A stretch of DNA of 63,924 nucleotides, the filler included, from Aduncisulcus paluster (lineage: Eukaryota), in the NCBI GenBank assembly GCA_024181965.1. It is 9 parts of 9 records of this genome, joined end to end, with 100 filler letters (N's around TTAATTAATTAA, not from the genome) between each part and the next. Parts side by side here need not be neighbours in the genome. Positions count along the whole stretch, not along the records: positions 1 to 11,861 come from BQXS01000018.1; 8 more parts are not named here. One strand, given 5' to 3'. Positions 1 to 63,384 of this stretch are shown piece after piece. The notes under the pieces were generated by a model that saw only the letters and a list, made by a program, of their open reading frames with translations, ran no database searches and was not told the origin of the DNA. The translations under genes and the position numbers were made by a program. Within the stretch, counting starts at the first letter, position 1. Every line of letters begins with the position of its first letter.

Positions 1-2813
1 GGAAGTGCCATTCAAATCTATGTTTAGGTCTTATGAATTCATACTTCTTGGATGTCTTCTTACCATCACAATCAGTGAAAGTGAAGCGAAGAGAGGGTGA
101 ACTGGAATCCTTCTCCACACAGATATAAGCACCTTTCATTGGACTAGGTGATGGAAAAGGGATGGAAAGATGGGATAATTCCACCCTACCTTCACATTTT
201 AACATTTTTTGAACTTCTTCACTTCGGTCATACTCCTTAGATTCCTGACAATACAAATCATGCTTTCCCTTGACCATCTCAAAAGAAGGATTATTAACGG
301 CTGCATTATCACGTGGAATGGGGATGGCAGATGCATCGCCAGAATTCACAAACTCTGATTTAATGGTGGGCTACATATCATTTTTGAAAAAGAGATATAT
401 AATGGTATTAGAAACAAATCGAGAGATAATATTGTAAAACAAGATTAGCGTGAATCGTATCAAATAATAAAACAAAGAAATATGAAAATATTAAACCAAT
501 AAAATATAATGAACATACAGCTTTAGACCATTGTTCCTCAATGGATTCTCGAATACAACGTTCTTCAGGGGTTTCTTCTCGAAGGAATTCGAGAGAGTCG
601 ATGTTGAAATCTCGACTATTCTCCTCAACCCACTTTCCTTTCCCTTCAATCTCACACAATACAACATTATCTAAATCAATAGGAAGGAAGTGCCATTCAA
701 ATCTATGTTCAGATCTTGTGAATTCATACTTCTTGTATGTCTTCTTACCATCACAATCAGTGAAAGTGAAGAGAAGAAAGGGTGAACTCCAAAACTTATC
801 CACACAGATATAAGCTCCTTTCATTGGACTAGGTGATGGGAAAGGGATGGAAAGATGGGATAAGGATACACCACCTTCCCCTTTTAACATTTTTTGTGCT
901 TCTGAACTCGTATCATACTCCTCAGATTCCTTACTCACCGAATCATTCTTGCACTTAACCATTGAGAATGAAAGCTTAACAATTGAAAACAAAGGGTCCT
1001 CAAGCTCTGGATTATCATGTACAATGCGAATAGAACTCCATCCTTCCTTCACAAACTCTGGTTTCACAACTGGAGCTTCAGACCATAGTTTCTCTCTGGC
1101 TTCACAAGATTTGATTTCTTCAGGAGTTTCTTCTCTACTAATGAAAACAATGGATTCGATTCCAAAACCAAAGCACTCTTCCTCTCTTCCTTCCCCTGTA
1201 ATCTCACAAAGAACAATATCAAGGAGATCAACAGGAAGGAAATGCCAATGATAGCCTTCAACTTCAGGAAACTCGTATATTTTGGATGTTTTCTCACCCT
1301 TTGAAGATATGAGAGTGAAGATAAGGTGTGATGGAGGTGAAGGATTGCTTGAAACACCACGTAGACAGATATAAGCCCCTTTCATTGGGGAAGATGAGGA
1401 AAAAGGAATGGATATATCGGTAAAATATCCTATATTACACTCTCCTTTCATCATCATTTGTGCTTCAGAACTTTGATCGTACTCTTCATCATATTTTTCC
1501 TTGGTTCCATCTATTGCTTCGATAGTTGGAAGCTCTGCACTCTTAATATTGGGGGAATCTCGAGGAATTGGACAGCATTTATAATTTCCTTTGTGAATAA
1601 ACTCAGGTTGCACAGTTTGAATAACAGCATCTGTGGACGAACTCATGTGACAAGTGTCTTCTTCTTCTTCTTTCACAGGTTTTGATGGCAAAGATAAAGT
1701 TGATGTGGGTGTCTTGGAGGAACTGAAAGGAACAGGAACATGAGTAAGAAGAGGAGGAGAGGTAGGAATATCATCACCTCGAAGGAAAACAAGTGAGTAG
1801 ATCCAGAAATATCGACTATTCTTCATATCCCACGTTCTTTTCCCTTCAATCTCACACAATACAACATTATCCAAATCAATAGGAAGGAAGAGCCATTCAT
1901 ACCAATGTTTAGGTCTTGTGAATTCATACTTCTTGAATGTCTTCTTACCATCACAATCAGTGAAAGTGAAGAGAAGAGAGGGTGAACTATCATTCTTATC
2001 CACACATATATAAGCACCTTTCATTGGACTAGGTGATGGAAAAGGGATGGAAAGATGGGATAAGTGTACAATACCTTCCCCTTTTAACATTTTTTGTGCT
2101 CTTGAACTCTGATCATAATACTTAGATTCCTTACTCTTCGAATCATCCTTGCACTTAACCATTGAGAATGAAGGATCAACAAGCTTTGGATCATCACGTG
2201 GAATGGGAATAGAATCTCTACCAAAAGATTCTTCATCTCCTTCCTTAACAAACTCTGGATTCACAACTGGAGCTTCAGACCAAAGTTTCTCTCTGGCTTC
2301 ACGAGATGTTATTTCTTCAGGAGTTTCTTCTCTACTAATGAAAATGAGAGATTTAATTTCGAAACACTCTTTCCATCTTCTTTTACCTGTAATCTCACAC
2401 AGAACAACATCAGAGAGATCAATAGGGAGAAAGAACCAGCTTGTTTTTTCTAATTCAGGAAATTCATATTTTTTAACCATTTTCTCCCCCTTTGAAGATG
2501 TGAGAGAGAAGATAAGGTATAAGGGTGGATAGGTAAATCGGGTATATTCTCCAATGCAAATATAAGCGCCTTTAATGGGAGTAGATGTGGAGAAAGGAAG
2601 GGAGATTTCTGTAAATTTTCCCCAATAATGCTCTCCTTTCATCATCTTTTGTGCATTAGAACTCTGATCATATTCTTCATCGCCTTTTCCCTTGGTCCTA
2701 TTCTTGGCTTCGATAGCAGTTATATCAGGACTCCTAACATTCGGGGCATCTCGAGGAATTGGAGAGCTAGATAAATAACCTTCATGAATAAATTCTGGTT
2801 CAATGAGTTGAAT
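1..2813 (-). CDS. 'MKGAYIC' repeat-domain family protein, domain order A-B-A-B-B; runs off the window start
   Basis: The ORF 408-2645 extends in frame up to an acceptor at 2814 (TTAG|IQLIEPEF). A GTATGT..TAG intron at 518-371 joins WSKA|PTIKSEFV, matching WSEAPVVKPEFV in the other repeats, and exon 370-1 encodes a fifth domain. A possible first exon lies at 2930-2862 (GTGTGT donor, uncertain). Confidence 0.85.
371..518 (-). other. Spliceosomal intron (148 nt)
   Basis: GTATGT donor at 518, TAG acceptor at 371, AT-rich; removal restores the repeat-domain alignment. Confidence 0.85.
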
Positions 2814-3037: not shown

Positions 3038-3813
3038 GTATGATGAGAACACGAACGATAATAAAAATAATATGATAATTTTAACAAAGAATGCCACCAC
3101 AATCATCGAACATGAAGTGAGTTTCAAGGAGAAAATGACGACAAGAATAAAAAAGAACAGCCAGCGGGAGAACCAGTGAATAAAACAGGGTGATTATGGA
3201 TTGACAAGAAGTTAATATCTAACTAACGAAAAATTATGACATACAATATTTTCAATATTTCTTTTACAACGGGAAGAAATGAAGTTTTAGAATTCAAAAC
3301 TCTGTATAATAACAATGCAAGATGACATTGCAGAATATATCGATTAAAAAATATAAATGGTTTCTTTCTAACATATATTGGATACCAGTCTTGTCATTCC
3401 ACTCCTGACACAAAANNNNNNNNNNNNNNNNNNNNGTATGATGAGAACACGAACGATAATAAAAATAATATGATAATTTTAACAAAGAATGCCACCACAA
3501 TCATCGAACATGAAGTGAGTTTCAAGGAGAAAATGACGACAAGAATAAAAAAGAACAGCCAGCGGGAGAACCAGTGAATAAAAAAGGGTGATTATGGATT
3601 GACAAGAAGTTAATATCTAACTAACGAAAAATTATGACATACAATATTTTCAATATTTCTTTTACAACGGGAAGAAATGAAGTTTTAGAATTCAAAACTC
3701 TGTATAATAACAATGCAAGATGACATTGCAGAATATATCGATTAAAAAATATAAATGGTTTCTTTCTAACATATATTGGATACCAGTCTTGTCATTCCAC
3801 TCCTGACACAAAA
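3038..3813. repeat. 378-bp duplication flanking a 20-N gap (likely unmerged overlap or two alleles)
   Basis: 3038-3415 matches 3436-3813; I saw one substitution (TAAAACAGGG vs TAAAAAAGGG). Confidence 0.85.
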
Positions 3814-3943: not shown

Positions 3944-6256
3944 TTATTCCATCACTTTCATTCCAAATTTTTCATCAAAGTCGACATATTGTTTTAATTC
4001 ATCGGAACTGACAGAAGGACGCACGATTGCCAAAGATCTCTCGAAATCTTTTGCACAAACACGCCTAACATCACCACTGGTTCCATTTCTGACCTCCTGT
4101 TCTGACGCACAATCCCTTATAAACTCTCTGACAGGTGCCAAAGACGCCTCTCTCAACAGCACTGAAAGATCAGACCCCGAGTAACCATCAGTCTTCTCCA
4201 CAATGTGCTCAATCTCATCCGATGTTAAGCTATGATCTATCTTTTCACGGTACAATGAACTCAAAATGAGGTATTTCCTCGCTGGAGCATCTGGCAACGG
4301 GATATAAAACCTTCCAGCTAATCTGCGTCTTGCTGCCTCGTCGATCCAATCTGGTCTATTCGTAGCACCAACAAGAATAACCAAAGGATTCTCTGGCATT
4401 TCTCTCTTACACCTGCTTGTTTTCTTCCCATGATGACTATCACCAACACCACCTTCCTCCTCTTCCTCCTCGTCATCTTCCTCATCTTTTCCATAGTAAC
4501 GAGGAGTACTCCTTGAAAGAACACTCGAAACAGGGCTTGAAGCAGGCTCAGAGATGGGAAGAAGAAGAGGAAGAAGAGGAAGAGGAAGAGGAACCTGTGA
4601 CTACTCCATCAAGTTGTACAAGGAACTCGGTTTTCATTCGTAATAAATGGTCTTCGCTATCACTTCGCTTTGTAAGCAATGAATCTATTTCATCAAGGAA
4701 TATAACAGATGGAGCACAGTACCTAGCAATACTAAACAAAGCCTTAACCATAGCTTCCCCTTCTCCAATCCATTTGGAAGTCAGGGAAGACGCAGAGAGA
4801 GAGAAAAATGTAGCATTGACTTGACTGGCAATCGCTTTACCAATAAGGGTTTTCCCTGTACCAGGTGGCCCAAATAATAGAATACCCCGCGGANNNNNNN
4901 NNNNNNNNNNNNNCAGTACCTAGCAATACTAAACAAAGCCTTAACCATAGCTTCCCCTTCTCCAATCCATTTGGAAGTCAGGGAAGACGCAGAGAGAGAG
5001 AAAAATGTAGCATTGACTTGACTGGCAATCGCTTTACCAATAAGGGTTTTCCCTGTACCAGGTGGCCCAAATAATAGAATACCCCGCGGAGGAGCACGCA
5101 TCCCTGTGAAAAGTAAAGGATTCTGGAGAGGCCACACAACGCATTCCTTGATAGCCTTCTTGACTGGTTCAAGACCGGCAATGTCATCCCACTGCACTGA
5201 TACAGAACCCTGGACTATTGTAGACTCTACCCGAGTGATTAATGAGGACTCAAGATGCTCCAGACCTGGATACTTTGTGTTCTTCTCTTTATCTTCATCA
5301 TCCTCTTCTTCTCTGGAGCCAGAACCACCTCTATCTGGACTTCCGTGCCTATCATGTCGTCTTCGTCTCTCCCTTCGTCTCCTCTCTTTCTCTTTCTCCC
5401 TCGATCTGCGCTTCTCTTCTTGCTCTTCTTCTTCTAACTCTTCTTGCTCCTCTCTCACGCGATCCTGTTCATCCTCATCGAGTAAGTTAAAGCTACTTTT
5501 GAGAACGTCAGTCCTACGATATGATTTGGCTTCCTCCGCTCTTTTTTGCTTCTCCTGGCGTCTTCTTGCTCGTGCATCAGACGGACTTTGTGGAGACTGT
5601 GAGCCTCCGAATATATCAAACGATTGGCCTTCCACATCCCATTTTTTCCTTGTCGAACTCCATTGGTCTTGAGCTGCGGAAGAAGAGGAAGATAGGGATG
5701 TACTATTCGATTTAGATGGTATTGTTTGTGTTTGTTTGGTCGATAACGTTGGAGATAATTGTTTTTGAAAAGAAGAAGCCTGTATTTTCATCATCATTAA
5801 TTCTCTCTGTTGTATCTGGAGATCTTGTTGTTGTTTTTCTATAATATGTTTTTGTTCTTTTATGTGTTGCTCTAGTTTCGCCAAATCTTGGACAGAAACT
5901 TCAGGATCTTTAGGAATTGGCTTGAGGATAGGTCCATCAATATAATATCCATTTGAATCCATCGAGTGGAGAGATGAATCTTCTATATGCAATTTAATGT
6001 CTTTTGGAAGCATTCCATCCCCAGCACTGCCAAGGACAGCAGCCAAAGAAGGATTATCCTGCCCGACAACAAATTCAGCTATTCTAAAGACATAAAAAAG
6101 ATATTAGATTTCATTATTTCGTAATATGCGGAATATTATGAATGAAAAAATGTCGACATACCTTAATAAATCAAAGGAATCAGGTGATCCTTGAGCAAAA
6201 GCATCTAACTCGATTGAGTATAAATCTGACAAAAATTGAAGCTTATCGTGGAACAT
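3944..6256 (-). CDS. FIGNL1: Fidgetin-like AAA+ ATPase (meiotic clade), broken in the assembly
   Basis: Motifs [19 protein letters not shown] (Walker A), [22 protein letters not shown] (Walker B) and [16 protein letters not shown]. Exon 1 is 6256-6162 (MFHDKLQ...), with a GTATGT intron at 6161-6084. A duplication (4717-4893 = 4914-5090) flanks an N gap, and there is a frameshift in the poly-Ser tract near 4560. Confidence 0.8.
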
Positions 6257-11861: not shown

Positions 11862-11961
11862 NNNNNNNNNNNNNNNNNNNNNNNNNNNNNNNNNNNNNNN
11901 NNNNNTTAATTAATTAANNNNNNNNNNNNNNNNNNNNNNNNNNNNNNNNNNNNNNNNNNNN
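11862..11961. other. Artificial contig linker N44-TTAATTAATTAA-N44
   Basis: The 12-mer gives stops in all six frames. Identical linkers lie at 22474-22573, 35171-35270, 38467-38566, 42168-42267, 45616-45715, 58799-58898 and 61758-61857. Confidence 0.97.
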
Positions 11962-33524: not shown

Positions 33525-35170
33525 ATGATTACCCCCATTATCGATTTTGGACAACCGATATATGGTGCTTCAGGCCATCCTGGATATGATGCTATTTCCA
33601 TGGAATATCAGAGCCCAAATCGCAAGCCAGCGACACCCAAAAAGAAACCCAAGCCAAAGCCAACAGTCTGTAAGCCTTTTAATATCACTAAAGTGAAACC
33701 TAAGCCGAAACCTGTTATATCTCCATATGCTGAAGAGGATGGTGAAATAAGGCAGTTTAAAGCTAAAGATTTGCCAGCTATGTATCGTGAAAAAAAGATT
33801 TCGAAGGATGTTTCCATGCTTGAGAAAGCTTCTGAGGAATTGCCTCGATCTGAGTCACGTGAGGATTTACAGGATGAAGATGTTGCTGAAAATCCATTTT
33901 TCGGCGATACACCCGGTGAAAATTTGGGTGATGACGATGATAAGCCTGGATTAGATTCGAGCCTTCCAACAACCCCCCAGAAAAGTGCCTTGACTCCAAA
34001 AAGAATTGTTCGCACCCCTACATCTCAGAAACCATTTTCTGTATCGACAAAATATAGGAAAAAACTTCAATCTCCATCTCCTGCCAAAGTTATGAGAGAT
34101 GAATATGAAAAAGAGCGATTCAAGGCTAATCCAGTTCCAGATTTTACTAAACTTCGCCCTCAATATGCCATAAAAACAACCAAAGCCGATATGCTCAAAG
34201 AAAAACACCTTGCAGAGGAAAGGAAGAGAATATTACGAAGAGAAATTGGTGAGCTTGAAAAAAGCAAGATAAATCGTCGTAAGCACGAAGAATATGCTGA
34301 AAACCAACGAATTGCAGCATTAGCCAAAGAAATGGCGATTAGGGAGCTTAAAAGACGCGAAATTATCCAGCAACGTGAAGAGGCTCAAAAAGCTCTTGAA
34401 ATTGTTCAATTGAAGAAAAAACAAGCCGCTCATTCTGTTTTCCAGGAAACAGTCGCTCTTGAGGAGCTTGCAAAGATTGAGAAAGTCCGTCAATATTCTT
34501 CCAACACTCGAGTGCATGCTCAAGTCAAACATGAGCTTGAGGAAGCCAAACAGAAAGTCAACGATGTTCTTCAGTCCAAACGTGATCGTGCCCGTGAAGA
34601 AGTCACTCGAGAGGATGATTATTTGAAACGCATCAAAGTGGCTCAGGATATTGCCGAGCGTAAACGGAAGAAGGCTTTGTTCCAAAAGACTCGTGAAGAT
34701 GAGAAGAGGCTCATGATGACTCCAGAAGAACGCAAGGATGTGACACGTCCTGTCTATCAGCGTGCTACCCATGAGGAAGTCATGAACGAGTGCAGTGGGT
34801 TCGGGCTTGGCGCCATGAGTCTGGCTGAACTTGAGGCCACCCGACGCAAACAACTCGAAGAAGAGAAGAAGGAGATTGAAGAGAAGCAGCTCCACGTTCG
34901 TGCGGAGAGGGAGGAGAAGAAAGAAGAGCTGGAGCGTCTCCACAAGGCCATTGTTGCCCAACGCAAGCTTGAGAGTGCCGAACAACGTCTAAGAAAGCAA
35001 GAAGCCAAGCGTCGTGTTGCCAAAGCTGAGGATAAGGTGAAGAAAATGACCAACCAAATGTTAGAATCCATCGATCATTTCAGCATTGGGCAAAAAATTA
35101 TGAAACAACGCCGGAATAAGGAAATTGATCTTCTCAAGAAGCGAATTGAACGTGAGAAGAAAGAGAGAGC
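33525..35170 (+). CDS. CFAP99-like cilia/flagella-associated coiled-coil protein, 3' truncated
   Basis: T..KPFNITK.KP, FKA.P.P repeats and G.GL..MSLAEL within a K/E/R coiled coil; recognised from memory of CFAP99. Confidence 0.6.
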
Positions 35171-35270
35171 NNNNNNNNNNNNNNNNNNNNNNNNNNNNNN
35201 NNNNNNNNNNNNNNTTAATTAATTAANNNNNNNNNNNNNNNNNNNNNNNNNNNNNNNNNNNNNNNNNNNN

Positions 35271-36200
35271 GGATCACCTGGCTTCGATCAAAGTTCTGGT
35301 GCACAAAAGATGATGCGTGGAGAGGAGAATTATGATTCTATCTTTACTTTTATCTCGCTTCCTTTTTCTTCTCCTACCCCAATGAAAGGCGCTTATATCT
35401 GTTTGGATTGTAGTTTTTTACCAGAACATCTTCTCTTCACGTTCACTTCTTCAAAGAGTGAAAAGATATCCAAGAAATACGATATTATAAAATTTCAAGG
35501 TTGGCTTTGGTTTTTCTTGCCCATTGATCTCTCTGACGTTGTTTTATGTGAGATCACGGGGAAAGGAAGAGAAAAAGAATGGTTTGTAATCAGATCTCTT
35601 GTTTTCTTTCAAGAAGACACCCCCGATGAAATCATGGCCCGTGAAGCCAAAGAGAAACTCTGGTCTGAAGCTCCAGTTCTGGAACCCTATATTGCTTGGT
35701 CTATAACTTGTCCGGATGATTTCATTTCCATTCGATCCGATGATCCTAGGCGTGTCAACCCTTTGTACTCGATGGTCAAGTGCAAGAATAATGTGTTTTG
35801 TGAGGAATCTGTGTATTATGATCAGAGTTCTCAAGCTCAAAAAATGTTGAAATGGGAAAGTGGTGAATGTGGGCAAGACGCTGTTCTATTGTCCCATATT
35901 TCCATCCCTTTTCCATCACCTAGCCCCCTGAAATGTGCGTATTCCTATGTGACTGAGTATTGTTCACCCTCTCTGCTCTTCACTTTCACAGATTGTACTG
36001 GTAAGAAGACATCGATAAGGTATGACTTTTCAAGGCCTATTGGTGAATGGTACTACCTTTACATTAACTTGCCGAATGTTGTGTTATGCGAGATTGAAGG
36101 AAAAGGAATGTGGGATAGGCGACAAAGTAGCCAGTTCTGCATCGACACTCTCGTTTTTATTAAGTCGGAGGAACTCGAAGCTGCATCTGAATGCAAATAG
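35271..36200 (+). CDS. Divergent 'MKGAYIC' family member (A-B), 5' truncated, no kinase
   Basis: Same framework (PFSSPTPMKGAYICL, FLPIDLSDVVLCEITGKG); the stop codon follows the B domain. Confidence 0.85.
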   Translation, partial: GSPGFDQSSGAQKMMRGEENYDSIFTFISLPFSSPTPMKGAYICLDCSFLPEHLLFTFTSSKSEKISKKYDIIKFQGWLWFFLPIDLSDVVLCEITGKGREKEWFVIRSLVFFQEDTPDEIMAREAKEKLWSEAPVLEPYIAWSITCPDDFISIRSDDPRRVNPLYSMVKCKNNVFCEESVYYDQSSQAQKMLKWESGECGQDAVLLSHISIPFPSPSPLKCAYSYVTEYCSPSLLFTFTDCTGKKTSIRYDFSRPIGEWYYLYINLPNVVLCEIEGKGMWDRRQSSQFCIDTLVFIKSEELEAASECK

Positions 36201-38466: not shown

Positions 38467-38566
38467 NNNNNNNNNNNNNNNNNNNNNNNNNNNNNNNNNN
38501 NNNNNNNNNNTTAATTAATTAANNNNNNNNNNNNNNNNNNNNNNNNNNNNNNNNNNNNNNNNNNNN

Positions 38567-41500
38567 AGATGGAACAACAGAGAGATTGAAGTGTTGTTGG
38601 CACTGAAAGAAGTGAGAGATGATGGCGATGGGAAAAGACCAGACTCAGTGATATCGTATAATGGATTGTCATTCAAGGAGAGTGTTGTAAGATTTGTGAA
38701 TGATGTGAAATCTGTGTCTGGACTAACATTACATCCATCAGCATAGAGGATGGAAATTGAGGTTGGAGGGGAAGAGAGTAAAGAAGAGAAGTCTAAAACA
38801 TTTGAAGCATAACTCACATCAAGAGAGACAAGTTTCGTGAGATTGGAGATGGTTGAGAAACTCGTCAGTGAGGAACAGTTGTTTGCAGTCAAGGTCGTGA
38901 TTGAGGTTGGAATGGAAGAGAACGAGGACAATGCAGTGTAACTAACATCAAGAGATGTGAAAGTTGATGATGAAGAAGAAGAAGAGGATGGGAATAGAGC
39001 AGAATTTGTCAAATCATACGATGAATTGTTCTTCAAGGAGAGTGTTGTAAGATTTGTGAATGATGTGAAATCTGTGTCTGGACTAACATTACATCCATCA
39101 GCATAGAGGATGGAAATTGAGGTTGGAGGGGAAGAGAGTAAAGAAGAGAAGTCTAAAACATTTGAAGCATAACTCACATCAAGAGAGACAAGTTTCGTGA
39201 GATTGGAGATGGTTGAGAAACTCGTCAGTGAGGAACAGTTGTTTGCAGTCAAGGTCGTGATTGAGGTTGGAATGGAAGAGAACGAGGACAATGCAGTGTA
39301 ACTAACATCAAGAGATGTGAAAGTTGATGATGAAGAAGAAGAAGAGGATGGGAATAGAGCAGAATTTGTCAAATCATACGATGAATTGTTCTTCAAGGAG
39401 AGTGTTGTAAGATTGGTGAAGATAGAGAAGTCACTATCAGCAGCAAGATAGACAGCCTCAAGAGACAACTCAACGAGGGACAAAGGAAGGTATCCAAGAT
39501 CAGTATTCCCAATGGACACAGAACTAGACGAAGTGCCAGAGATAGACAAAGATGTGAGGTTCACAGCATGTTGAAGACCTTCAAGGGAGTCCACAATGGA
39601 AGCATGCACAGAAGTCACGGTTGCCATGTCTGCAGGAGTCAAATCATCACAGGAGGAATCGTGAGCAGTTGGATTAGAAACAGACAAACACACAGCACTT
39701 CGAAGGTTGGAATCGGGAATATAAACATATTCACATGAATCTCCATGGAAACCAGATCGACATCCACATGTGATGTATGAAGCCCCAACTTCAAGAACAG
39801 GTTTCATATTGGAATGTCTTTCACATACTTGGATACGAATAGCATCATCAACACCTGAAGTTGTAATACAAGTCTCATTTTCAGTATCATACTCATACCC
39901 ACTATCACATGCAGCAACACACTCTCCACTGGCTTTGTCAAGATAGTACCCATTCCAGCATTCAACAGCCCAACGATTAGGGTACACTTCACGACATACT
40001 TGGTAGGATGAAGAAGACACAGATGCAGAACAATGACATGTTTGGTCAGAATATGTTATAGATGAAAAAGTAAATTTTGTTTGCAATACACTCACCATCC
40101 CTTCAACATCACAGATATTATTACCACTGATATCAAGAGATACCAAAGCATCACTCGGGAACAAGGATGAAGTGAAGAGTACTGACACATCCGAAATATT
40201 ATTGTTGGAAACATTTAACGTGGCAAGCTTGAATGGAACAGTTTTATCACTGGCTAAATCAGTGTCAGCCACAATTGGTGTTAAGTCAAGAATTTCAGAA
40301 AATTCATACAAACCACAGTTACTAGCCGAGAGAGTTGTGAGTCCAGATTCGATTGGAGAAGCGCTTACAGCTTTAGCTAGAATTTTGATGACCAATTGAT
40401 CATATTCTGAAGAAACACTATTTTGACTTAGATCATAGCCATCAACGTTCAAAGATGTCAAACCAATGGGACTGGTCGAGGAATCACCAATTCCTTGTGC
40501 ATACTCAAGACCTTGTAAGGTCGTGATATCATTAACTGAGGAAATATCATTGTTGTAAGCCACCACATCAGTCAAAGAGAGAGAAGAACAAGTAAGAGCA
40601 GATCGTAAAGTTGCAACACTAATGACATCGTTATCCTCAATATCAGTGCTTGTGAGACAGTTGTTGTTTGCATCTGACAAGTAAGCACGTATATAGTCAT
40701 CGTGAACAGTGAAACATGCTCCAGAAGTTCCTTCCTTGGCAATGAATGAACATTGTTTCTCATTATCAATATTGTTATATACTTCATTTCGGATTACAGA
40801 AGGACAATCAGAATCCTCCTGACTATCATCACAATAATACTGAAGATTCACATCATTAAGAGGACATTCATTTGGATAGAAATAATATTCTGGAGTATTG
40901 TTATGGTGAAGTGGAAAGATTGACGATAAATAAGACCAATATAAAGAATCGTCTTCCGAACGACACATTGAAATATAATTTGGATATGGAAGACCAGATG
41001 TTGTATCAGCAATTTGAATAACTTCAATCGCAATGTTCCTGTAGAACACTGAAATGTCGTAAATATGGGGATTTGCGAGGATATACGCGTGAGTAAGTCT
41101 TGTCATCTTATAAGACGATTCAGAAATATCGAGAATATCCATTGTATATACTCCAGCATCATGAATATGGGTATAATAATAAAGAATCAAGATCTGCGAC
41201 AAGTCAATCGTTGGCAAGGTTAACGTGATAAAGTTATATGAAACGTCAATTTCAGCAATATTTATGAGTTTTTCGCTTCCTTCAATAGAACGCAATGAGA
41301 AGTTTTTGGCATCAAGAATTGATATTTGAGCCATTTCAAACTCTGAAACATCGCACATTGTAAAGCCATGTGAAGTAAGTTGGCATATCCTCATTCTATA
41401 TTGGGAATCAGGGATATACACTTGGTACAATTGGTCACAATCATCACCATACCATGTTGCACGACACCCGCATGTAATGGAAGTAGCACCAACTTCAAGA

Positions 41501-42167
41501 ACAGCCATCATATTGGAATGTCTTTCACATACTTGGATACGAATAGCATCATCAATGGAAGAACTGGAAGAAACACATGTTTCAGTGGTTGTATCGTACT
41601 CATACCCACTATCACATGCAGCAACACACTCTCCACTGGCTTTGTCAAGATAGTACCCATTCCAGCATTCAACAGCCCAACGATTAGGGTACACTTCACG
41701 ACATACTTGATGATTGGCAGAAGACACGGATGCAGAACAATTGCATGTTTGGTCAGAATATGTTATAGATGATAGGGTTGGGAATTCGGTTTGCAATTGA
41801 CTCACAATTCCTTCAATATCACAGATATTATTATCACTGATGTCAAGAGTTGTGAGGAAATTATTTGGGAAGATAGATGATGTGATGAGAACAGATACAT
41901 CAGAGATGGAGTTGTTTGAGAGATCTAGGGATGTCAGTTTGAATTGGTCTGTGGTTGAGTCTCCAGAAGCAATGGGAGTCAAGTCAAGCACATCACTGAT
42001 AGCACTCAATCCACAGCCACTCGCAGATAATATCCTCAGACCAGAATCAATGGTTCCAGACGTCACCGCCTTTGCCAAGATCTGAACAACCAACTTATCA
42101 TACTCAGCATTGGAATTAATATCTCCACGCAAGTCATACCCATCAAGGGTCAGAGAGGTCAGTGAAG
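38567..42167 (-). CDS. Internalin-like LRR plus Cys-rich/EGF-like protein (internal fragment; probably surface or secreted)
   Basis: LxxLDLSNNxISD LRRs, IPDSNLRSAVC cap, EGF-like CGCRxxWxGDxC, and two copies of a Cys-rich module. Open at both contig ends. Confidence 0.85.
38672..39414. repeat. Exact in-frame 360-bp (120-aa) tandem duplication of an LRR block
   Basis: Sequence lines are identical at an offset of 360. Confidence 0.92.
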
Positions 42168-42591
42168 NNNNNNNNNNNNNNNNNNNNNNNNNNNNNNNNN
42201 NNNNNNNNNNNTTAATTAATTAANNNNNNNNNNNNNNNNNNNNNNNNNNNNNNNNNNNNNNNNNNNNTCCATGAAGCATCATGGGATTAGATTCGTAGCA
42301 GTATACAGACATATGTATAGCATCGTATTCCGAGTTCTTGATATTTTTGATTGTAAGCAAAAGCAAGTGAAAATGAACAGAAAGGCAAGGATAAGGATAG
42401 AAATGAAATGGAAATATATCCATGTTATTGAATAGCATTGAAATCGTTCATAAATGTTCTTAACACGTGAAATGGAACTATATCCAGTCCTGAGGGTTCT
42501 CCAAAAGCCTGAGATATCGAGAATAAACACCATGGCATGGAAATGAAAATAAAACATGTTTTTATCATTTACCAGCATTTAATTCGTTTAT

Positions 42592-45108
42592 ATGTGTTTT
42601 TTTAATTTTCCAATCTTATCTATTGAAGGGTTGCTTGTTCAGTCCTCCATTTTGGAGGCGGATGCTGTTATTCAAACTGTGGAACCTGAGTTTGTTCATG
42701 AAGGAGAATACGATTGCTCCCCAATTCCTCGAGATGCCCCCAATATTAAGAGTGCAGAGCTACCAACTATCAAAGCAATAGATAGAACTGAGGAAGAAGG
42801 TAAATATGGATACGATCAGAGCTATTATGCACAAAAGATGATGAAAGGAGAGTGGAATGATGGACAATATACCCATATCTCCATTCCTTTCTCTTCAACT
42901 TCACCAATGAAAGGGGCTTATATCTGTCTACGTGGTGGTTCAAGCAATCCTACACCTCCATCACACCTTATCTTCACCTTCATATCTTCAAAGGGTGAGA
43001 AAACATCCAAGAAATACAGATTTCCTGAATTTGAAGGTTTTCATTGGTATTTCCTTCCTGTTGATCTCCTTGATGTTGTTCTGTGTGAGATTACAGGGAA
43101 AGGAAGATATAGCAAGTATTTTAGAATCGTTTCCCTTGTTTTCATTAGTAGAGAAGAAACTCCTGAAGAAATCAAATCTCGTGAAGCCAGAGAGAAACTT
43201 TGGTCTGAAGCTCCAGTTGTGAAACCAGAGTTTGTTAAGGAAGGAGATGAGGAATCTTATGGTAGAGATTCTATTCCCATTGCTCGCGATGATCCAAAGC
43301 TTGTAGATCCTTCATTCTCAATGGTTAAGTGCAAGAATGATTCGGTGAGTATGGAATCTAAGTATTATGATCGGAGTTCAGATGCACAAAAAATGTTAAA
43401 AGGGGAAGATGAAGAGGATTGTGTTGAATTATCCCATCTTTCCATCCCTTTCACACCTAATCCAATGAAAGGTGCTTATGTCTGTGTGAATAAGTATGCT
43501 AGTTCTCCCTCTCTTCTCTTCACTTTCACTGATTGTGATGGTAAGAAGACATCCAAGAAGTATGAATTCAAAAAACTTAAACATAAATATGAATGGCACT
43601 TCCTTCCTATTGATTTGTGTAATGTTGTATTGTGTGAGATTGAAGGGAAAGGATCGTGGTATAATAAGAAGTGTCGAGATTTCGACATCGAATCCCTTAT
43701 TTTCCTTCGAGATGATGATATTCCTACCTCTCATCCTCTTCTTACTCCTGTTCCTGTTCCTTCCAGTTCCTCCAAGACTCCCACATCAACTTTGTCTTTG
43801 CCATCAAAACCTCTGAAAGAAGAAGAAGATTTTATTCAAATGAGTTCATCCACAGATGCTGTTATTCAAACTGTGGAACCTGAGTTTGTTCATGAAGGAA
43901 ATGAGGCTTGTTGTCCAATTCCTAGAGATGCCCCCAATATTAAGAGTGTAACCGATCCAACTATCGAAGCAATAGATGGAACCAAGGAAGAAGGAGATGA
44001 AAAGTACGACCAGAGTTTTAACGCACAAGAGATGATGAAAGAAAATATTTTTTTTGGAAAGTTGAATTTTGGATATTTTACCCATATCTCCATTCCTTTC
44101 TCTTCATCTTCCCCAATGAAAGGGGCTTATATCTGTCTATATAGCTATTCTTCAGCTCCATCACAGCTTATCTTCACTTTCACATCTTCAAAGAGTGAGA
44201 AAACATCCAAGAAATACGAATTTCCTGAATTTTATGGTTGGCATTGGTATTTCCTTCCTGTTGATCTCCTTGATGTTGTTCTGTGTGAGATTACAGGGAA
44301 AGGAAGAGAGAAAGAGTATTTTAGAATCCTTTCCCTCATTTTCATTAGTAGAGAAGAAACCCCTGAAGAACTCAAATCTCGTGAAGCCAAACAGAAACTA
44401 TGGTTTGAAGCTCCAGTTGTGAAACCCGAGTTTGTCAAGAAAGGATATAGAGCATCTTTTGGTAGAGATTCTATTCCCATTCCACGAGATGATCCAAAGC
44501 TTGTTGATCCTTCATTCTCAATGGTTAAGTGCAAGCTTGATGCATTTAGTAAGGAATCTGTGTGTTATGATCAGAGTTCAGATGCACAAAAAATGTTAAA
44601 AGGGGAAGATCCTGTACTCTTATCCCATCTTTCAATCCCTTTCCCATCACCTAGTCCAATGAAAGGTGCTTATATCTGTGTGGATCATAGTTGGAGTTCT
44701 CCCTCTCTTCTCTTCACTTTTACTGATAATTATGGTAAGAAAACATGCAAGAAGTATGAATTCACAAGACTTAAACATGAATATGAATGGCATTTCCTTC
44801 CTATTGATTTGGATAATGTTGTATTGTGTGAGATTGAAGGGAAAGGAAGGTGGGATGAGAAGAATAGTCGATGGTTCTGGATCTACTCCCTTGTTTTCCT
44901 TCGAGGTGATGATATTCCCACCTCTCCTCCTCTTCTTACTCCTGTTCCTGTTCCTTTCAGTTCCTCCAAGACACCCACATCAACTTTGTCTTTGCCATCA
45001 AACCCCGTGAAAGAAGAACAAAAACAAGAAGAAATTGTTATTAAAGGAAATGATAAGGATTCGGCACCAAAAGACACCAAACAGAAGAAACATAAGGATA
45101 AAAAGTGA
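42592..45108 (+). CDS. 'MKGAYIC' family member (A-B-A-B) with a Pro/Ser and Lys-rich linker
   Basis: Four domain copies; stops at AAA AAG TGA, where the downstream kinase ORF continues in the -1 frame. Confidence 0.85.
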   Translation: MCFFNFPILSIEGLLVQSSILEADAVIQTVEPEFVHEGEYDCSPIPRDAPNIKSAELPTIKAIDRTEEEGKYGYDQSYYAQKMMKGEWNDGQYTHISIPFSSTSPMKGAYICLRGGSSNPTPPSHLIFTFISSKGEKTSKKYRFPEFEGFHWYFLPVDLLDVVLCEITGKGRYSKYFRIVSLVFISREETPEEIKSREAREKLWSEAPVVKPEFVKEGDEESYGRDSIPIARDDPKLVDPSFSMVKCKNDSVSMESKYYDRSSDAQKMLKGEDEEDCVELSHLSIPFTPNPMKGAYVCVNKYASSPSLLFTFTDCDGKKTSKKYEFKKLKHKYEWHFLPIDLCNVVLCEIEGKGSWYNKKCRDFDIESLIFLRDDDIPTSHPLLTPVPVPSSSSKTPTSTLSLPSKPLKEEEDFIQMSSSTDAVIQTVEPEFVHEGNEACCPIPRDAPNIKSVTDPTIEAIDGTKEEGDEKYDQSFNAQEMMKENIFFGKLNFGYFTHISIPFSSSSPMKGAYICLYSYSSAPSQLIFTFTSSKSEKTSKKYEFPEFYGWHWYFLPVDLLDVVLCEITGKGREKEYFRILSLIFISREETPEELKSREAKQKLWFEAPVVKPEFVKKGYRASFGRDSIPIPRDDPKLVDPSFSMVKCKLDAFSKESVCYDQSSDAQKMLKGEDPVLLSHLSIPFPSPSPMKGAYICVDHSWSSPSLLFTFTDNYGKKTCKKYEFTRLKHEYEWHFLPIDLDNVVLCEIEGKGRWDEKNSRWFWIYSLVFLRGDDIPTSPPLLTPVPVPFSSSKTPTSTLSLPSNPVKEEQKQEEIVIKGNDKDSAPKDTKQKKHKDKK

Positions 45109-45615
45109 AAGAAGCTGTGCAAAAAGAAGCTGTGAAAGAAGCTGTGAAAGAGGAAGAAGAAGAAAAGACAGAATCTTGGGGAAAGAAAGATATTCCTTCA
45201 AGTTCAAAACAACAAACAGAATCACTCACTCAAGAAACAAAGACATCTGAACCTACCAAATCCAACCCAAACCAACCAACTTCTTCTACTCCTTCTCAAC
45301 AGCCCATTTCTGTCCCACTCCCTCAGACCTTGACTTCCTCCTGTACCATTACTCCTCTTTGTATCATTGGGAAAGGTGGGTTCGGTGTTGTTATCCTTGC
45401 TCGTGTCGAATACCCTGCTTCATACTGCTCGCCTCCTGTGTTGTGTGCTCTGAAGTGTATGAAGAACAAAGAGTCATGTGAATACAATGAGAAATGTGTG
45501 AAAGACATGAAGAAAGAATTCTCTCGTCAGCATCGGTTGTATTTCAAATCATCATTACAAAGCTGTATCCCTCGTCCTCTGCATATCCTTGATCTTCTCG
45601 ATGGTGATCTGAAGG
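45105..45615 (+). CDS. Linker plus protein kinase N-lobe (out-of-frame continuation of the 42592 gene), truncated
   Basis: IIGKGGFGVV glycine loop, CALK catalytic Lys and KKEF alphaC Glu. Confidence 0.8.
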
Positions 45616-46608
45616 NNNNNNNNNNNNNNNNNNNNNNNNNNNNNNNNNNNNNNNNNNNNTTAATTAATTAANNNNNNNNNNNNNNNNNNNNNNNNNNNNN
45701 NNNNNNNNNNNNNNNATAAGAGAACTTTTCATTCTTTTTTGAAGCACGACGAACTCTTTTTTAAAGTTACTTCAGAACTTGTAAAAATGGGTTCCATAAC
45801 GAAAATGAGCCTCTTATCCTTATCTAAACGAATATCAAGACTTGTGTGCACTAATTGCAGAAATAATAATAAATGATAAATAAACTCCTATTAAATAAGA
45901 GACCAAACAGAGAGAGAGAGAATAAGAAAAAGTTGGTGGAGATTTCAAATAATATAATAAAATAATAATACAGAAAAAGAAGATACAAAATAATTATTTG
46001 ATATACCTGTTTTCAATACTTTTTGAAGCCGAGATAAATGCCATTTAAAAAAAAAGGAATTTAAATGTTTCGAAATCAATGGATTACTCTGTCTTCACAA
46101 GGAACTTTTGATTATTGACAACTACAAATCAAAAAAAATGAACAAAAATAACACAGTCAAAAATAGTAAAATGACTCTTTGAAGCCGAGTCAATCAATTT
46201 TTAATTTCTTTGTTTTTATAATGTTTGAATTTCAAGAAAGTCTTTTATCCAATAATAAATCGAAGAAATACAAATAATGTAGATAATGAATAGTGGATCA
46301 AGAGATAAGAATTTAATCAAATAGAAAGAAGGAAAGAGAGGGAAAAAGATAAATTTCAAAAACAACACGACATATATTTATATAGAAACTAATTCGAAAT
46401 TTCTATACAGATATACATTTGATTCTGTCATATTTCGGAAAAGAAATAAAAATAGAAATAGAGAAAAATAAAAAAGAAGACAATAAATACAAATTCATAT
46501 TAAGGAAGGAAAAACATGTTTTTTTGAACATGACAAAAAATATCACAAAGCAATTTGAAAAGAAAGAATAAAAATAATAAAAATAATAATATTTGATTGC
46601 AATCTTTA

Positions 46609-48354
46609 TCATTCTCTTGCACTGATGAATTTTCTCTTCTTACTACCATCTGGTTTAGGTTTACCCTTGCTCAATTTTCTTCCTTCTCTCCTGGCGCTCG
46701 TTTCACGGGCACTTGTACTTTTCAGAACAGCTTCCTTACGTTTCCTTTTCATCTTCTTCTCTTCCTCCTCTTTCTTTCTCACCAGTTTGTACACTCTCTG
46801 GCGATATTCATCCACAGTAAACTTGATATCATCGCTGATCGGAACAGTCAGAGGGGCAGTTAGATGGGGAACAGGAGCAACGGGGAGGGAAAGCGGAGGC
46901 TTTTCGGGTGTCCCTTCCCCACGGGCGAATACTGCAACGTATGGATGGTGGAGAGCATCAATGGCTCGTATGCGGTGAGAAGGGGAGAAAGATAGGCATC
47001 TGGCAAGCAAATCAATGGCCTCAACAGAGGCTCCTGAGAGAATGAGGGATAATCGCCGAACCAAGTGTATAGAAGGGGTGCAATAGGCAAACCGAGCACT
47101 CAGTTCAGGGTTTGAAGCAATAGAAGGGAGAACAGAAAAAGAGGAGGATAAGCTTGATGGAGAACAATGTTTCAAGGGTGAGGAAGAGAGGGACGATGCT
47201 TGAGAACCTGATGGTGAGACAGTGGTGGAGGATGGAGTGGAATGGGAGTGGTGTCTTCTCAAATCTGACTTATGGGAATGTGACGAATGCCTTGACCTAG
47301 AATGATGGAGAGAGCCTGATGACTTGGTTTTATGCAAGGACTTATGATGGTGGGAATGGCCGTGTAAGTCAGAAGAGGAATGTTTCATTGATTTACGATC
47401 AGATTCACGAATAAAGGGAGTGGATTGAGTGATTTTGCTCTCAACCTGGGTATCAGCAAGTTGATCTGAATGATTGTCAAAGCCAGGACAAGAGCGGGCG
47501 TGAGAAACCTTGATAGAGCCAGAAACAGAGCTTGACATACGCTGTCGGCTGGCACGGCCGTAGGAAGGTTTTACAGACACTGGAAGAGCATCCAGAAGAC
47601 TGTGAACAAATGGAGAATCAAGTTCTTTGATAATTTCATCAGAAGGATACCCGGTTACATTAATAATACGAGTAAGTTGGTTAAGAGAACAAGATCCTGG
47701 AAATAGTGGTTTACCTTGCAATAATTCTGCAAAAATACATCCAATGGCCCACATATCGACATCCAATGTGTATCTTTGAAGACCCAATAGAATTTCAGGG
47801 GGTCGATACCAACGGGTGGCGACATAGTCGGTCATGAGGGATGCTGGAACAGAATCGCCGGAAAATGCTTGGGAAACAGATCTAGCAAGTCCAAAATCAC
47901 ATATTTTAATGGCACAATCGCTATCAATAAGGATATTGCTGGGTTTCAAATCCCTATGCAAAACACTCCCGCTGTGAATGTAATAAACGGAAATAAATAG
48001 CTGATATATGATATATTGAATATGGATATCCTGGAGAATATCAGATCGAATCACTGCATGAAGATCAGAAGGGAAATACGGGAAAACAAGGTAAAGATCA
48101 CGATTATTATCAGCAGTATGGATATTTAGCAAGGAAATAATATTGACATGACGCAAACTCTTCAAATAAAAGACTTCACGATACGCACGTTGAGCATCTG
48201 TACCATTTTCAAAAACACCAATACATTTTTTTAACGCGACCAATTTTGAGGTCTCTCTATCCTTTGCTTTGTAAACAATTCCATATGCTCCTTTTCCTAT
48301 CTTGCTAATTAGCTGATACCGCTTTAAAATGTGCTTATCAACGGAGAAAGACAT
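46609..48354 (-). CDS. MAPK15: Atypical MAP kinase, ERK7/ERK8 type
   Basis: GKGAYGIV, TDAQRAYRE, DNNRDLYLVF, HRDLKPSN, DFGLAR and MTDYVATRWYR (TDY motif), plus a large S/H-rich insert. Confidence 0.9.
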   Translation of the reverse strand: MSFSVDKHILKRYQLISKIGKGAYGIVYKAKDRETSKLVALKKCIGVFENGTDAQRAYREVFYLKSLRHVNIISLLNIHTADNNRDLYLVFPYFPSDLHAVIRSDILQDIHIQYIIYQLFISVYYIHSGSVLHRDLKPSNILIDSDCAIKICDFGLARSVSQAFSGDSVPASLMTDYVATRWYRPPEILLGLQRYTLDVDMWAIGCIFAELLQGKPLFPGSCSLNQLTRIINVTGYPSDEIIKELDSPFVHSLLDALPVSVKPSYGRASRQRMSSSVSGSIKVSHARSCPGFDNHSDQLADTQVESKITQSTPFIRESDRKSMKHSSSDLHGHSHHHKSLHKTKSSGSLHHSRSRHSSHSHKSDLRRHHSHSTPSSTTVSPSGSQASSLSSSPLKHCSPSSLSSSFSVLPSIASNPELSARFAYCTPSIHLVRRLSLILSGASVEAIDLLARCLSFSPSHRIRAIDALHHPYVAVFARGEGTPEKPPLSLPVAPVPHLTAPLTVPISDDIKFTVDEYRQRVYKLVRKKEEEEKKMKRKRKEAVLKSTSARETSARREGRKLSKGKPKPDGSKKRKFISARE

Positions 48355-61757: not shown

Positions 61758-61857
61758 NNNNNNNNNNNNNNNNNNNNNNNNNNNNNNNNNNNNNNNNNNN
61801 NTTAATTAATTAANNNNNNNNNNNNNNNNNNNNNNNNNNNNNNNNNNNNNNNNNNNN

Positions 61858-63384
61858 GAAGCATCTTCTTCAGAACACATGGGAAAGGAATGGCATCAAT
61901 AAGAACAAGAAGAACCTCTCCGAACCCACCACTGCCAATGATGCACTGTGAAGTCAGCGTGGATGCAGATGTCAGGGTTAGCGAGTCGTGCTTGGGGTTA
62001 GACTTGGGCTTGCCATCCTTGGGGTTATCTTTCTTTTTATCCTTATGTTTCTTCTGTTTGGCGTCTTTTGGTCTTGGATCCTTATCATTTCCTTTAATAA
62101 CAACTTCTTCTTCTTCTTCTTCTCCTTCTTCTTTCACAGCTTCTTTAACACGTTTTGATGGCAAAGACAAAGTTGATGTGGGTGTCTTGGAGGAACTGGA
62201 AGGAACAGGAACAGGAGTAAGAAGAGGAGGAGAGGTGGGAATATCATCACCTCGAAGGAAAACAAGGGAGAGGATGTTGAAATAATTTCGACTCACGAAT
62301 TGTCGATTATTCTCCTTCCACCACATTCCTTTCCCTTCAATCTCACACAATACAACATTATCCAAATCAATAGGAAGGAAGTGCCATTCATATTTATGTT
62401 CAGGTCTAGTGAATTCATACTTCTTGAATGTCTTCTTACCATCACAATCAGTGAAAGTGAAGAGAAGAGAGGGTGAACTATCATGCTGATCCGCACAGAA
62501 ATATGAACTGGAATCCTTAATCACACAGATATAAGCACCTTTCATTGGACTAGGTGATGGGAAAGGGATGGAAAGATGGGATAAGCTAATAGAATCTTCC
62601 CCTTTTAACATTTTTTGTGCTCTTAAACTCTGATCATACCCCTTAGATTCCTTACAAAACGCATCATTCTTGCACTTAACCATTGAGAACGAAGGATCTA
62701 CCAGCTTTATATCATCTCGTGGAATGGGAATAGAATATCTTCCTCCTTCCTTAACAAACTCTGGTTTCACAACAGGAGCTTCAGACCATAGTTTCTCTAT
62801 GGCTTCATGAGATTTGATTTCTTCAGGAGTTTCTTCTCTACTAATGAAAACAAGGGATTTGATTCCAAAATACTCTCTATATCTTCCTTTCCCTGTAATC
62901 TCACACAGAACAACATCAGGGAGATCAACAGGAAGGAAATACCAACGCCAACCTTTAAATTCAGGAAGATATTCTCTAAATTCAGGAAAGTCGTATTTTT
63001 TAGGTAATTCGTATTTCTTGAATGTTTTCTCACCCTTTGAAGATGTGAGAGTGAAGATAAGGTGTGATGGAGGTGGAGAATAGATATATATATACAGATA
63101 TAAGCCCCTTTCATTGGAGAAGATGAAGAGAAAGGAATGGATATTTTGGTAAAATGTCCTAAATTCCACTCTCCTTTCATCATCTTTTGTACATTAGAAC
63201 TCTGATCATATTTTGATGTTTTTACAAACAGTATTTTTTTGGATTGGTCCTTAGCTTTCAAAGATTCATACTTTGGGATCTTAATATTGGGGACATCTCC
63301 AGGAATTGGACAGCATCTATCATCTCCTACATGAACAAACTCAGGATCCACAGTTTGAATAACAGCATCTCTGGATGAACCCAT
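61858..63384 (-). CDS. 'MKGAYIC' family member (A-B) fused in frame to a protein kinase N-lobe; frameshifted in domain A, 3' truncated
   Basis: ORF 63384-62797 (MGSSRDAVIQ..GAYIC) and ORF 63169-61802 overlap, with the frame switch at a (TA)n tract at 63084-63094. It ends IIGSGGFGEVLLV...CVLKKML. Confidence 0.82.

Follow-up and report, generated by a model that had tools for sequence, protein, structure and literature searches.

A nearly invariant scaffold with a few hypervariable, positively selected positions in a tandem-domain family of Aduncisulcus paluster

INTRODUCTION

How can copies of a protein domain stay almost identical along most of their length while they differ radically at a few fixed sites? 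The question is raised by a gene in a 63,924-nucleotide stretch of DNA, filler included and nine parts joined end to end (here, 'the window'), from Aduncisulcus paluster, a free-living metamonad. The draft genome of this organism comprises 15,316 predicted proteins, and is a fragmented short-read assembly with an N50 of 4.6 kb (PMC9933649). The segment that drew attention, 580–2300, falls inside one minus-strand gene (2–2813). An exon of this gene alternates two types of domain, termed 'A' and 'B', of approximately 145 residues each, and the two types are homologous. An earlier reading, made from the sequence alone, had proposed that variation between the B domains is confined to short loops and alternating strand positions, and that it reflects diversifying selection on a ligand-binding surface of the kind found in leucine-rich repeats (LRRs).

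The analysis supports the conclusion that purifying selection holds the scaffold of these domains nearly constant, and that some 18–19 positions in each are under positive diversifying selection. The explanation we favor, and consider likely, is that this selection acts on an apical recognition surface in a new family of discoidin/DOC-like domains, and that the array of domains targets or switches an attached protein kinase. We describe where the variation lies, how it appears to have arisen, what fold carries it, and how other explanations fare against the same evidence.

VARIATION AMONG THE DOMAINS

Entropy was calculated for 113 unique extended B units, from a total of 115, over 143 core columns. 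It is not spread uniformly: of the summed Shannon entropy, 36% resides in 18 of the columns (12.6%). Pairwise identity averages 15.7% over these hypervariable columns, compared with 53% for 35 intermediate columns and 85.9% for the 90 columns of the framework. The intermediate columns are moderately variable (1–2.5 bits), and occur mostly in the N-terminal extension and in the loop before YEW. The pattern stands far beyond chance and extends well outside the window; the word 'confined' is slightly too strong in view of these 35 columns. Among the 113 B domains, 112 distinct 18-residue signatures occur.

AYxCV is followed by four hypervariable residues, YEW is preceded by one, and the GKG loop that follows contains three. 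Every 'x' of the last strand, R-x-F-x-I-x, is hypervariable, as are the 'x' of V-x-L and its two preceding residues. The others lie further upstream: one in the stretch after MVKCK, two before YDQSS, and one in a short helix. Tyrosine and tryptophan (3.2-fold each), asparagine (2.9-fold), arginine (2.3-fold), and aspartate and glutamate (2-fold) are enriched at these sites; proline, leucine, isoleucine and valine are depleted. The A subfamily (81 unique domains) is hot at the same columns (Spearman 0.72), with 7 of the top 12 in common (p = 5e-5). Couplings among the hypervariable positions are mostly within a loop, and are weak between loops (z about 4). The B domains contain 88 distinct last-strand triplets and 90 distinct loop tetrads, and a small set of exchangeable cassettes is ruled out by these numbers.

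All of the strings quoted in the sequence-only reading are present in the window. Following AYxCV, these are DKND in domain B1, DKFW in B2, EKDS in the copy at 2–343 (minus), NKYA at 43264–43707 (plus) and DHSW at 44455–44901 (plus). Following GK, they are RTWDMK, GKWVEE, GSWYNK, GRWDEK and GMWWKE, the last of these from the copy at 62255–62749 (minus). The last strand reads YFWIY, DFNID, DFDIE or WFWIY, and the variable residue of V-x-L, before SHLS, is H, S, E or L. Their placement at 580–2300 was only partly right: B1 and B2 are the only two copies that lie there, and the five or six variants had been pooled from all four loci of the family in the window.

SELECTION ON THE VARIABLE SITES

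DNA was available for the 13 domain copies in the window, and the codon analysis rests on these. To avoid circularity, codons were assigned to classes beforehand with the use of 107 B paralogues that lie outside the window; 19 codons are hypervariable (H ≥ 2.5 bits), 40 are intermediate and 90 belong to the framework. Whole-unit pairwise ratios of nonsynonymous to synonymous change (dN/dS, or omega) range from 0.76 to 1.71 for the five close B copies. Pooled over the 10 pairs that these copies form, framework codons have a synonymous difference (pS) of 0.110 (dS 0.12) and a nonsynonymous difference (pN) of 0.028; at the hypervariable codons, pS is 0.235 and pN is 0.568 (dN about 1.06). The A domains are similar, with pN of 0.40–0.61 at hypervariable codons in three close copies, versus a framework pS of 0.10–0.17.

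A partitioned, GY94-type likelihood model with shared branch lengths, written for this analysis, was fitted to seven copies and to the five close ones. Seven copies gave omega values of 0.17, 1.03 and 6.1 for framework, intermediate and hypervariable codons, respectively, and a value of 1 for the last class was rejected (2ΔlnL 67.2, p = 2e-16). Five copies gave 0.19, 1.15 and 10.3 (2ΔlnL 87.2). When each class was allowed its own rate multiplier, omega = 1 was rejected still, with 2ΔlnL of 26.1 for seven copies (p = 3e-7) and 27.2 for five. Likelihood-ratio p values over the tests on the hypervariable class span 2e-16 to 2e-7. The diversifying selection proposed at the outset is supported: dN/dS exceeds 1 at the variable sites, and their nonsynonymous change exceeds the synonymous change both in the same codons and in the framework.

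In the codon alignment, runs of 20 or more identical framework codons are broken by isolated codons with differences at two or three of their bases. The last strand is an example: CGA-[TAT/GAT/TGG/CAA]-TTC-[TGG/AAC/GAC]-ATC-[TAC/GAC/GAA/CTC]. The phenylalanine and isoleucine codons of this motif (e.g. 600–602 and 606–608 in B2) are TTC and ATC in all six copies that cover them, including a divergent one (dS about 0.6), and this uniformity may reflect codon bias or homogenization. The scaffold as a whole is very alike at synonymous sites, too, which points to recent duplication, concerted evolution, or both.

FOLD AND POSITION OF THE VARIABLE SITES

An AlphaFold2 model of the A2–B2 unit (window 546–1628, minus), made with 54 aligned family sequences, has a mean pLDDT of 91.4 and a pTM of 0.88, and comprises two beta-sandwiches joined by a conserved helix. 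The best Foldseek match is to the tandem CBM32 modules of Clostridium perfringens ZmpB (E = 1.5e-8); others are to neuropilin b1b2, factor VIII C1–C2, DDR1 and allantoicase. Alignment with VIA-align against 48,161 chains matched each domain separately (model residues approximately 20–165 and 190–355), at Z 10–13. Here, CBM32/F5/8C modules reach Z 13.2 for the pair and 10.9–11.6 singly, with single-module rmsd of 2.5–3.3 Å over 120–135 residues. Tied with these are APC10 (5a31_L; Z 12.0, 147 residues aligned, rmsd 3.6) and the DOC domains of HECTD3 (Z 11.6), HERC2 (Z 11.1) and CUL7 (Z 11.2). IFT25 (Z 11.4) and the discoidin domain of muskelin also matched, and the PITH domains of PITHD1 (1xpw; Z 11.2) and TXNL1 (9e8o_u; Z 10.0) are level with other members of the superfamily, with no profile match to PF06201. 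According to the model, then, A and B are eight-stranded jelly-roll sandwiches of the galactose-binding-domain-like superfamily (CBM32/discoidin/APC10-DOC/PITH type). All of the families matched at Z 10–13, and none can be singled out as the closest.

Sequence comparisons did not lead to this assignment. No Pfam family matched the A/B repeat in P0001, the 745-residue open reading frame (ORF) of the large exon (E ≤ 1), in the other arrays of the window (E ≤ 0.01), or in 39 further members, and in these same proteins neither PF00754 (F5/8 type C/discoidin/CBM32) nor PF03256 (APC10/DOC) gave a profile match. Searched by sequence profile, solved structures gave a best E of 0.34, which is meaningless. 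In the ESM Atlas the top feature score was 0.86, under the cut-off of 0.9, and one weak row bore the name 'galactose-binding domain-like'. Five members are annotated as 'NudC domain-containing' (P0019, P0024, P0029, P0079 and P0104); Pfam finds no CS family in any of them (E ≤ 0.01), and a CS/NudC domain was rejected.

In the B2 half of the model, the hypervariable positions are 252–255, at the entry to the first long strand, 277–280, 309, 332–335 and 340/342/344, with 231, 236–237 and 243 upstream. By DSSP, they occupy coil between strands, or alternating positions within strands. The turns PSPSPMKG, DCDGKK and DLDN, on the other hand, are conserved. As the earlier reading anticipated, the variable residues follow a pattern along the fold rather than being scattered: they fall in alternate connections between strands and, within the flanking strands, at alternating positions. 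By topology, alternate connections between consecutive antiparallel strands would all be at one pole, opposite the conserved turns and the exit of the C-terminus. The variable sites are thus predicted to cluster at a single pole (the 'apex') and on the outward face of the adjoining strands.

CBM32 modules have their ligand site in variable loops at the apex, where most of the hypervariable positions of A and B appear to lie as well. In CBM32-1 of CpGH31, the available part of the published account describes an N-acetylgalactosamine (GalNAc) site formed from four such loop regions: 971–975, 990–993, 1015–1024 and 1087–1090 (PMC5291390). Our alignment pairs residues 21–164 of the model with 954–1095 of this chain (4lpl_A), colinearly. 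By linear interpolation, rather than residue alignment, three of the four regions fall on hypervariable clusters of the A domain (58; 90–93; 156 and 158).

FAMILY, PARTNER DOMAINS AND CELLULAR SETTING

Of the 115 matches to P0001, 114 are named A. paluster and the other is the gene model of the window itself. When a profile built from 11 window domains was run against 1.84 billion cluster representatives, it gave 165 matches at E ≤ 1e-3; the source was checked for 10 of these, the weakest included, and all 10 are A. paluster. In total, 567 domains were found in 222 of 225 collected proteins, at 1–14 per protein. Many of the gene models are partial, and these figures are lower bounds: the family comprises at least 222 proteins and 567 domains, or at least about 1.4% of the predicted proteome. 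Judging from every source checked, the A/B sequence family appears so far only in A. paluster. The genome announcement makes no mention of it (PMC9933649), and the literature consulted on the organism, and on this evolutionary regime, contains no description of the family, or of one like it in metamonads. The family is, then, new in sequence, and known in its fold and in its mode of evolution; what is unexpected is the combination of arrays with a soluble kinase, and the organism.

The arrays usually lie N-terminal to a Ser/Thr kinase. Kinase motifs are present in 82 of the 222 proteins (HRDxKPxN in 54, and the GxGxxGxV loop in 76). Precomputed annotations list PF00069/PF07714 for many of the matches to P0001, and the same families occur in 10 of 28 distant members. 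Example kinases retain the GxGxxG loop, the VAIK lysine and HRDxKPxN, with DLG as a variant of DFG. Other partners are thioredoxin, nitroreductase, MSP and LRR domains (by Pfam; some may be fusions of gene models). Within the family, LRRs are limited to one member, P0045, where they form a partner domain distinct from A/B.

Of 119 sequences, no more than 17 contain a strongly hydrophobic 19-mer, and most of these segments belong to the kinase domain or to read-through of an intron; nor is the N-terminus that is annotated most often, MSSSTDAVIQTV..., a signal peptide. With so few hydrophobic segments and no signal peptide, the proteins are predicted to be soluble and cytosolic. Membrane receptor kinases were considered, and ruled out for want of any recurring hydrophobic segment or signal peptide. 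On sequence features, the most likely picture is of active Ser/Thr kinases, soluble in the cytosol, that carry recognition arrays at the N-terminus.

ORGANIZATION OF THE LOCI IN THE WINDOW

With the domain hidden Markov model (HMM), 13 copies are detected in the window, and these are spread over four loci (2–2813 minus, 35271–36161 plus, 42703–44901 plus and 62255–63156 minus). Their features are collected in Table 1.

Table 1. Features of the A/B family loci, in window coordinates
Feature	Position	Strand	Basis
Large exon, A1-B1-A2-B2	519..2813	-	reading frame and repeat families D1-D6
ORF P0001, 745 aa (table-11 reading of large exon)	408-2645	-	translation
A1 domain core; N-terminal extension to about 2813	2337..2645	-	domain HMM
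B1 domain, 149 aa unit, DKND / RTWDMK / YFWIY	1782..2228	-	domain HMM
B1 hypervariable loop after AYICV (D77-D80)	1989..2000	-	site classes from paralogues
B1 other hypervariable codons	2223-2225, 2136-2138, 2118-2123, 2100-2102, 2070-2075, 2064-2066, 1902-1904, 1833-1835, 1824-1829, 1809-1811, 1803-1805, 1797-1799	-	site classes
A2 domain; first domain of AlphaFold model	1140..1589	-	domain HMM
B2 domain, 149 aa unit, DKFW / GKWVEE / DFNID; second domain of AlphaFold model	582..1028	-	domain HMM
B2 hypervariable loop after AYICV (D77-W80)	789..800	-	site classes from paralogues
B2 other hypervariable codons	936-938, 918-923, 900-902, 870-875, 864-866, 702-704, 633-635, 624-629, 609-611, 603-605, 597-599	-	site classes
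Spliceosomal intron, 148 nt, GTATGT...TAG	371..518	-	sequence and spliced junction in P0039
Next exon: linker and start of further B domain (EKDS copy, 2-343), cut by window edge	2..370	-	ORF translation, P0039
Second gene: A 42703-43146, B 43264-43707, A 43912-44346, B 44455-44901; then K/E-rich linker	42703..44901	+	domain HMM
Second gene: linker and kinase N-lobe (IIGKGGFGVV...ALKCMK), other frame, probably small intron; then N run	45102..45615	+	translation
Third locus: A 35271-35609, divergent B 35724-36161	35271..36161	+	domain HMM
Fourth locus: B copy; in-frame insertions in two hypervariable loops	62255..62749	-	domain search
Fourth locus: A copy; frame change inside hypervariable loop (TA-rich run); duplicated segment in loop before W	62843..63156	-	domain search
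Fourth locus: kinase domain start (IIGSGGFGEVLLV...VLKKML), in frame with array; then N run	61858..62000	-	translation

In the first gene, the frame upstream of P0001 is open as far as 2813, just after an acceptor-like site (...tttgttag). The hydrophobic C-terminal tail of P0001 is read-through into the intron. The spliced junction, ...EEQWSKA/PTIKSEFVNSG..., is found in the window's own gene model, P0039, which extends the gene to the left of the window, with more domains and then a protein kinase. Two sequencing runs yielded only short Logan contigs here; in one, guessed to be RNA, bins 389–582 had no cover and the fit of one contig ended at 370, but these data are not usable for expression or splicing.

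DNA repeat families are 83–88% identical over 300 nt. Internal A–B units (at 1590–1640 minus and 43840–43900 plus) open with a motif that resembles an N-terminus, …MSSSTDAVIQTV(Q/E)PEF…, and is the same as the start most often annotated for proteins of the family. Because internal units begin in this way, the arrays seem to have grown by tandem duplication of whole A–B genes, start codon included.

The remaining loci are less regular. At the third, the A domain and divergent B domain are apparently in frame, across an N run, with a 565-residue K/E-rich, coiled-coil-like ORF that starts at 33525 (33525–36200 plus), and this would give the module a non-kinase context. At the fourth, the insertions in the B copy are IKDSSSYFCA, after AYICV, and QFVSRNY, before F-x-I, both partly like flanking sequence; the duplicated stretch in the A copy is FKKYELPKKYDFPEFREYLPEF. 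These changes could represent diversification of loop length, a decaying copy or an error of assembly. The window contains 20 N runs (e.g. 3416–3435, 11862–11961, 45616–45715 and 61758–61857), in stretches of 20 or 44 that are often paired 12 bases apart. Several ORFs are interrupted by them, including both kinase domains downstream of A/B arrays.

Three other coding regions were seen. An ORF of approximately 1,200 residues (38515–42219 minus) contains a large internal duplication, along with LRRs (LRR_4, E = 1e-16) and cysteine-rich segments of EGF-like type; it is unrelated to A/B. One of 590 residues (46609–48381 minus) resembles, by eye, a MAP-kinase-like Ser/Thr kinase (HRDLKPSN, DFG and a TDY activation loop), with a long H/S-rich tail. 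Split ORFs at 3944–6046 (minus) include the Walker A motif of an AAA+ ATPase (GPPGTGKT), and their N-terminal parts are of low complexity and E/K/S-rich; they are probably one intron-containing gene.

COMPARISON WITH KNOWN SYSTEMS

CBM32/discoidin modules (e.g. CBM32-1 and CBM32-2 of ZmpB, 7jnd and 7jnb, and CpGH31 CBM32-1, 4lpl) have the same jelly-roll as A and B and, like these, occur in tandem, but there is no detectable sequence relationship. CBM32s are secreted bacterial sugar-binders on glycosidases, whereas A/B domains are eukaryotic, predicted to be cytosolic, and on kinases; and CBM32 modules differ from one another throughout, whereas the A/B scaffold is nearly invariant between copies. 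APC10/DOC, PITH, IFT25 and muskelin are equally good matches in fold, and are cytosolic protein-binding modules. TXNL1 includes a thioredoxin domain in its architecture, and so do some A/B proteins. These are single-copy, conserved housekeeping domains, however, without a sequence match to A/B, and to our knowledge none forms a large hypervariable family of paralogues.

Other systems resemble A/B in how they evolve rather than in fold. In the ligand faces of the LRRs of NLRs and lamprey VLRs, exposed hypervariable residues alternate along the strands, and are aromatic and charged, as they are in A/B. The comparison that the earlier reading drew with these repeats is apt as an analogy of regime, but not as one of membership: A/B domains have no LxxLxLxxN periodicity and no match to an LRR family in Pfam, and they form a beta-sandwich rather than an LRR solenoid. 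In B30.2/SPRY domains, including those of the TRIM5 type, positive selection is concentrated in variable loops. The finTRIMs of teleosts combine a beta-sandwich recognition domain of this kind with lineage-specific duplication into a large family and positive selection, as A/B do, according to the portion of the report available (PMC2657112). FinTRIMs belong to another fold family, have RING, B-box and coiled-coil partners, and are vertebrate antiviral proteins, whereas A/B domains have a kinase partner and occur in a protist.

The closest analogue in regime appears to be the highly internally conserved WD40, ANK and TPR repeats of fungal NLR-like (STAND) proteins. These are cytosolic, carry an effector domain, and consist of near-identical repeats with few positively selected positions, on the interaction surface, as described in the accessible part of the source (PMC4986451). 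A/B domains match them in very high conservation between units, including at the DNA level (83–88%), and in having few positions with dN/dS > 1. The fungal repeats are solenoids or propellers, in contrast to the 145-residue sandwich of A/B, which has a kinase as effector and lacks NACHT/NB-ARC; and concerted evolution, which has been demonstrated in fungi, is only suspected for A/B.

ALTERNATIVE EXPLANATIONS

If selection does act on a recognition surface, each copy would present a different apex rich in Tyr, Trp, Asp, Asn and Arg, and would thereby recognize a different ligand; capture of ligand by the array might then localize or activate the attached kinase, to which the array would be coupled. 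Several considerations weigh against this reading. The dN/dS values come from 5–7 paralogous copies of one window, on a single tree, under a model that allows one nucleotide to change at a time; omega can be inflated by recombination or by multi-nucleotide events, and in the free-rate models it ran to its upper bound, so that its magnitude was not estimated. A PHI-like permutation test gave p = 0.17 on 41 informative sites, and 385 of 820 site pairs are incompatible. The pS at hypervariable codons is about twice that of the framework, and some local elevation of rate may contribute. In a short-read assembly this fragmented (N50 4.6 kb; PMC9933649), individual copies could be chimeric. In the comparison with the GalNAc site, 6 of the 15 in-range hypervariable positions fall in windows that span about 22% of the domain, a weak enrichment.

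One could hold that there is no positive selection at all: that the loops are unconstrained and their divergence old and neutral, while gene conversion homogenizes the scaffold and makes dS falsely low. The very low framework dS and the long runs of identical codons are what this would produce, the incompatible site pairs fit, and arrays of near-identical modules, variable in length, invite unequal exchange. But hypervariable codons alternate singly with invariant ones in R-x-F-x-I-x, and conversion tracts cannot skip them one by one; omega = 1 is rejected even when the class has its own rate; synonymous change at the hypervariable codons is far below nonsynonymous; their biased composition is not predicted by neutral drift; and the PHI-like test detects no spatial signal of recombination. 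This is the most directly contradicted of the rivals, by the free-rate tests and by the codon-by-codon alternation, and we consider it very unlikely. We give equally little credence to targeted or multi-nucleotide mutation (slippage and duplication in loops, micro-conversion or a hypermutation system) as the source of the variation, with selection adding little. Most hypervariable codons do differ at two or three bases, their pS is raised about twofold, and the fourth-locus copy has its in-frame tandem insertions and frame change exactly within hypervariable loops. The variety of triplets and tetrads, however, leaves no small set of donor cassettes, and the variable positions, as single outward-facing strand codons, follow a rule of structure rather than of sequence context. 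Diversity-generating retroelements mutate adenines specifically, in a pattern centered on AAY; codons at the hypervariable sites include TGG, AAG, ATG, GAA and CAA, and adenine mutagenesis of this sort is ruled out. Contigs of one DNA sequencing run had no alternative letters at 97% likeness, but contigs drop rare variants and cannot be used as evidence of no variation.

Two further explanations accept a binding surface, and differ as to what it binds. It might be a pairing code among family members, either between A and B or for homotypic association of the kinases, in the manner of Dscam or protocadherins, rather than a sensor of foreign ligands or of varied ones from the cell. In every array A alternates with B, and the sites that vary are homologous in the two; the A–B model has defined packing (pTM 0.88), and kinases are often regulated through dimerization. 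The conserved helix between the domains, together with the scaffold, is the likelier A–B interface, however, and couplings across loops are weak; we regard a pairing code as improbable. Alternatively, the domains could be lectins, the apex binding carbohydrates such as the glycans of bacterial prey, and the family tracking glycan diversity. The best structural matches are indeed to sugar-binding CBM32 modules, and Tyr and Trp abound at the variable sites, a feature of sugar-binding sites too in the part of the CpGH31 account available (PMC5291390). Against this, the proteins have no recurrent signal peptide or membrane anchor, and are predicted to be cytosolic, away from prey glycans; intracellular protein-binding domains (APC10/DOC, IFT25, PITH and muskelin) match equally well, within about 1–2 Z units; and PF00754 finds no match in sequence. 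Lectins, too, seem to us a poor prospect. Diversifying selection on an apical recognition surface accounts better for these observations.

IMPLICATIONS

A bolder version of this explanation, which we hold only tentatively and think rather doubtful, is that the family constitutes a germline-encoded, intracellular recognition repertoire: hundreds of cytosolic kinases in a free-living unicellular eukaryote, each with arrays of antibody-like, hypervariable sensors of non-self built on the discoidin fold. We know of no use of a discoidin-fold sensor with a kinase effector for innate immunity in animals, plants or fungi. If the idea were true, non-self might be viruses, intracellular bacteria, effectors of prey or non-self of the same species, and this would be a system like innate immunity on a new fold and with a new effector.

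An invariant scaffold with a few positively selected surface positions, in a big family of paralogues, is a hallmark of recognition systems, including the LRRs of NLRs and VLRs, the repeats of fungal NLRs, and TRIM B30.2. If the apex of the A/B domains binds diverse ligands, the family would be a model for how a unicellular predator discriminates targets inside the cell, and for the independent origin of recognition repertoires. It would also be a test of a small, stable scaffold with approximately 18 tolerant positions for the engineering of binders.

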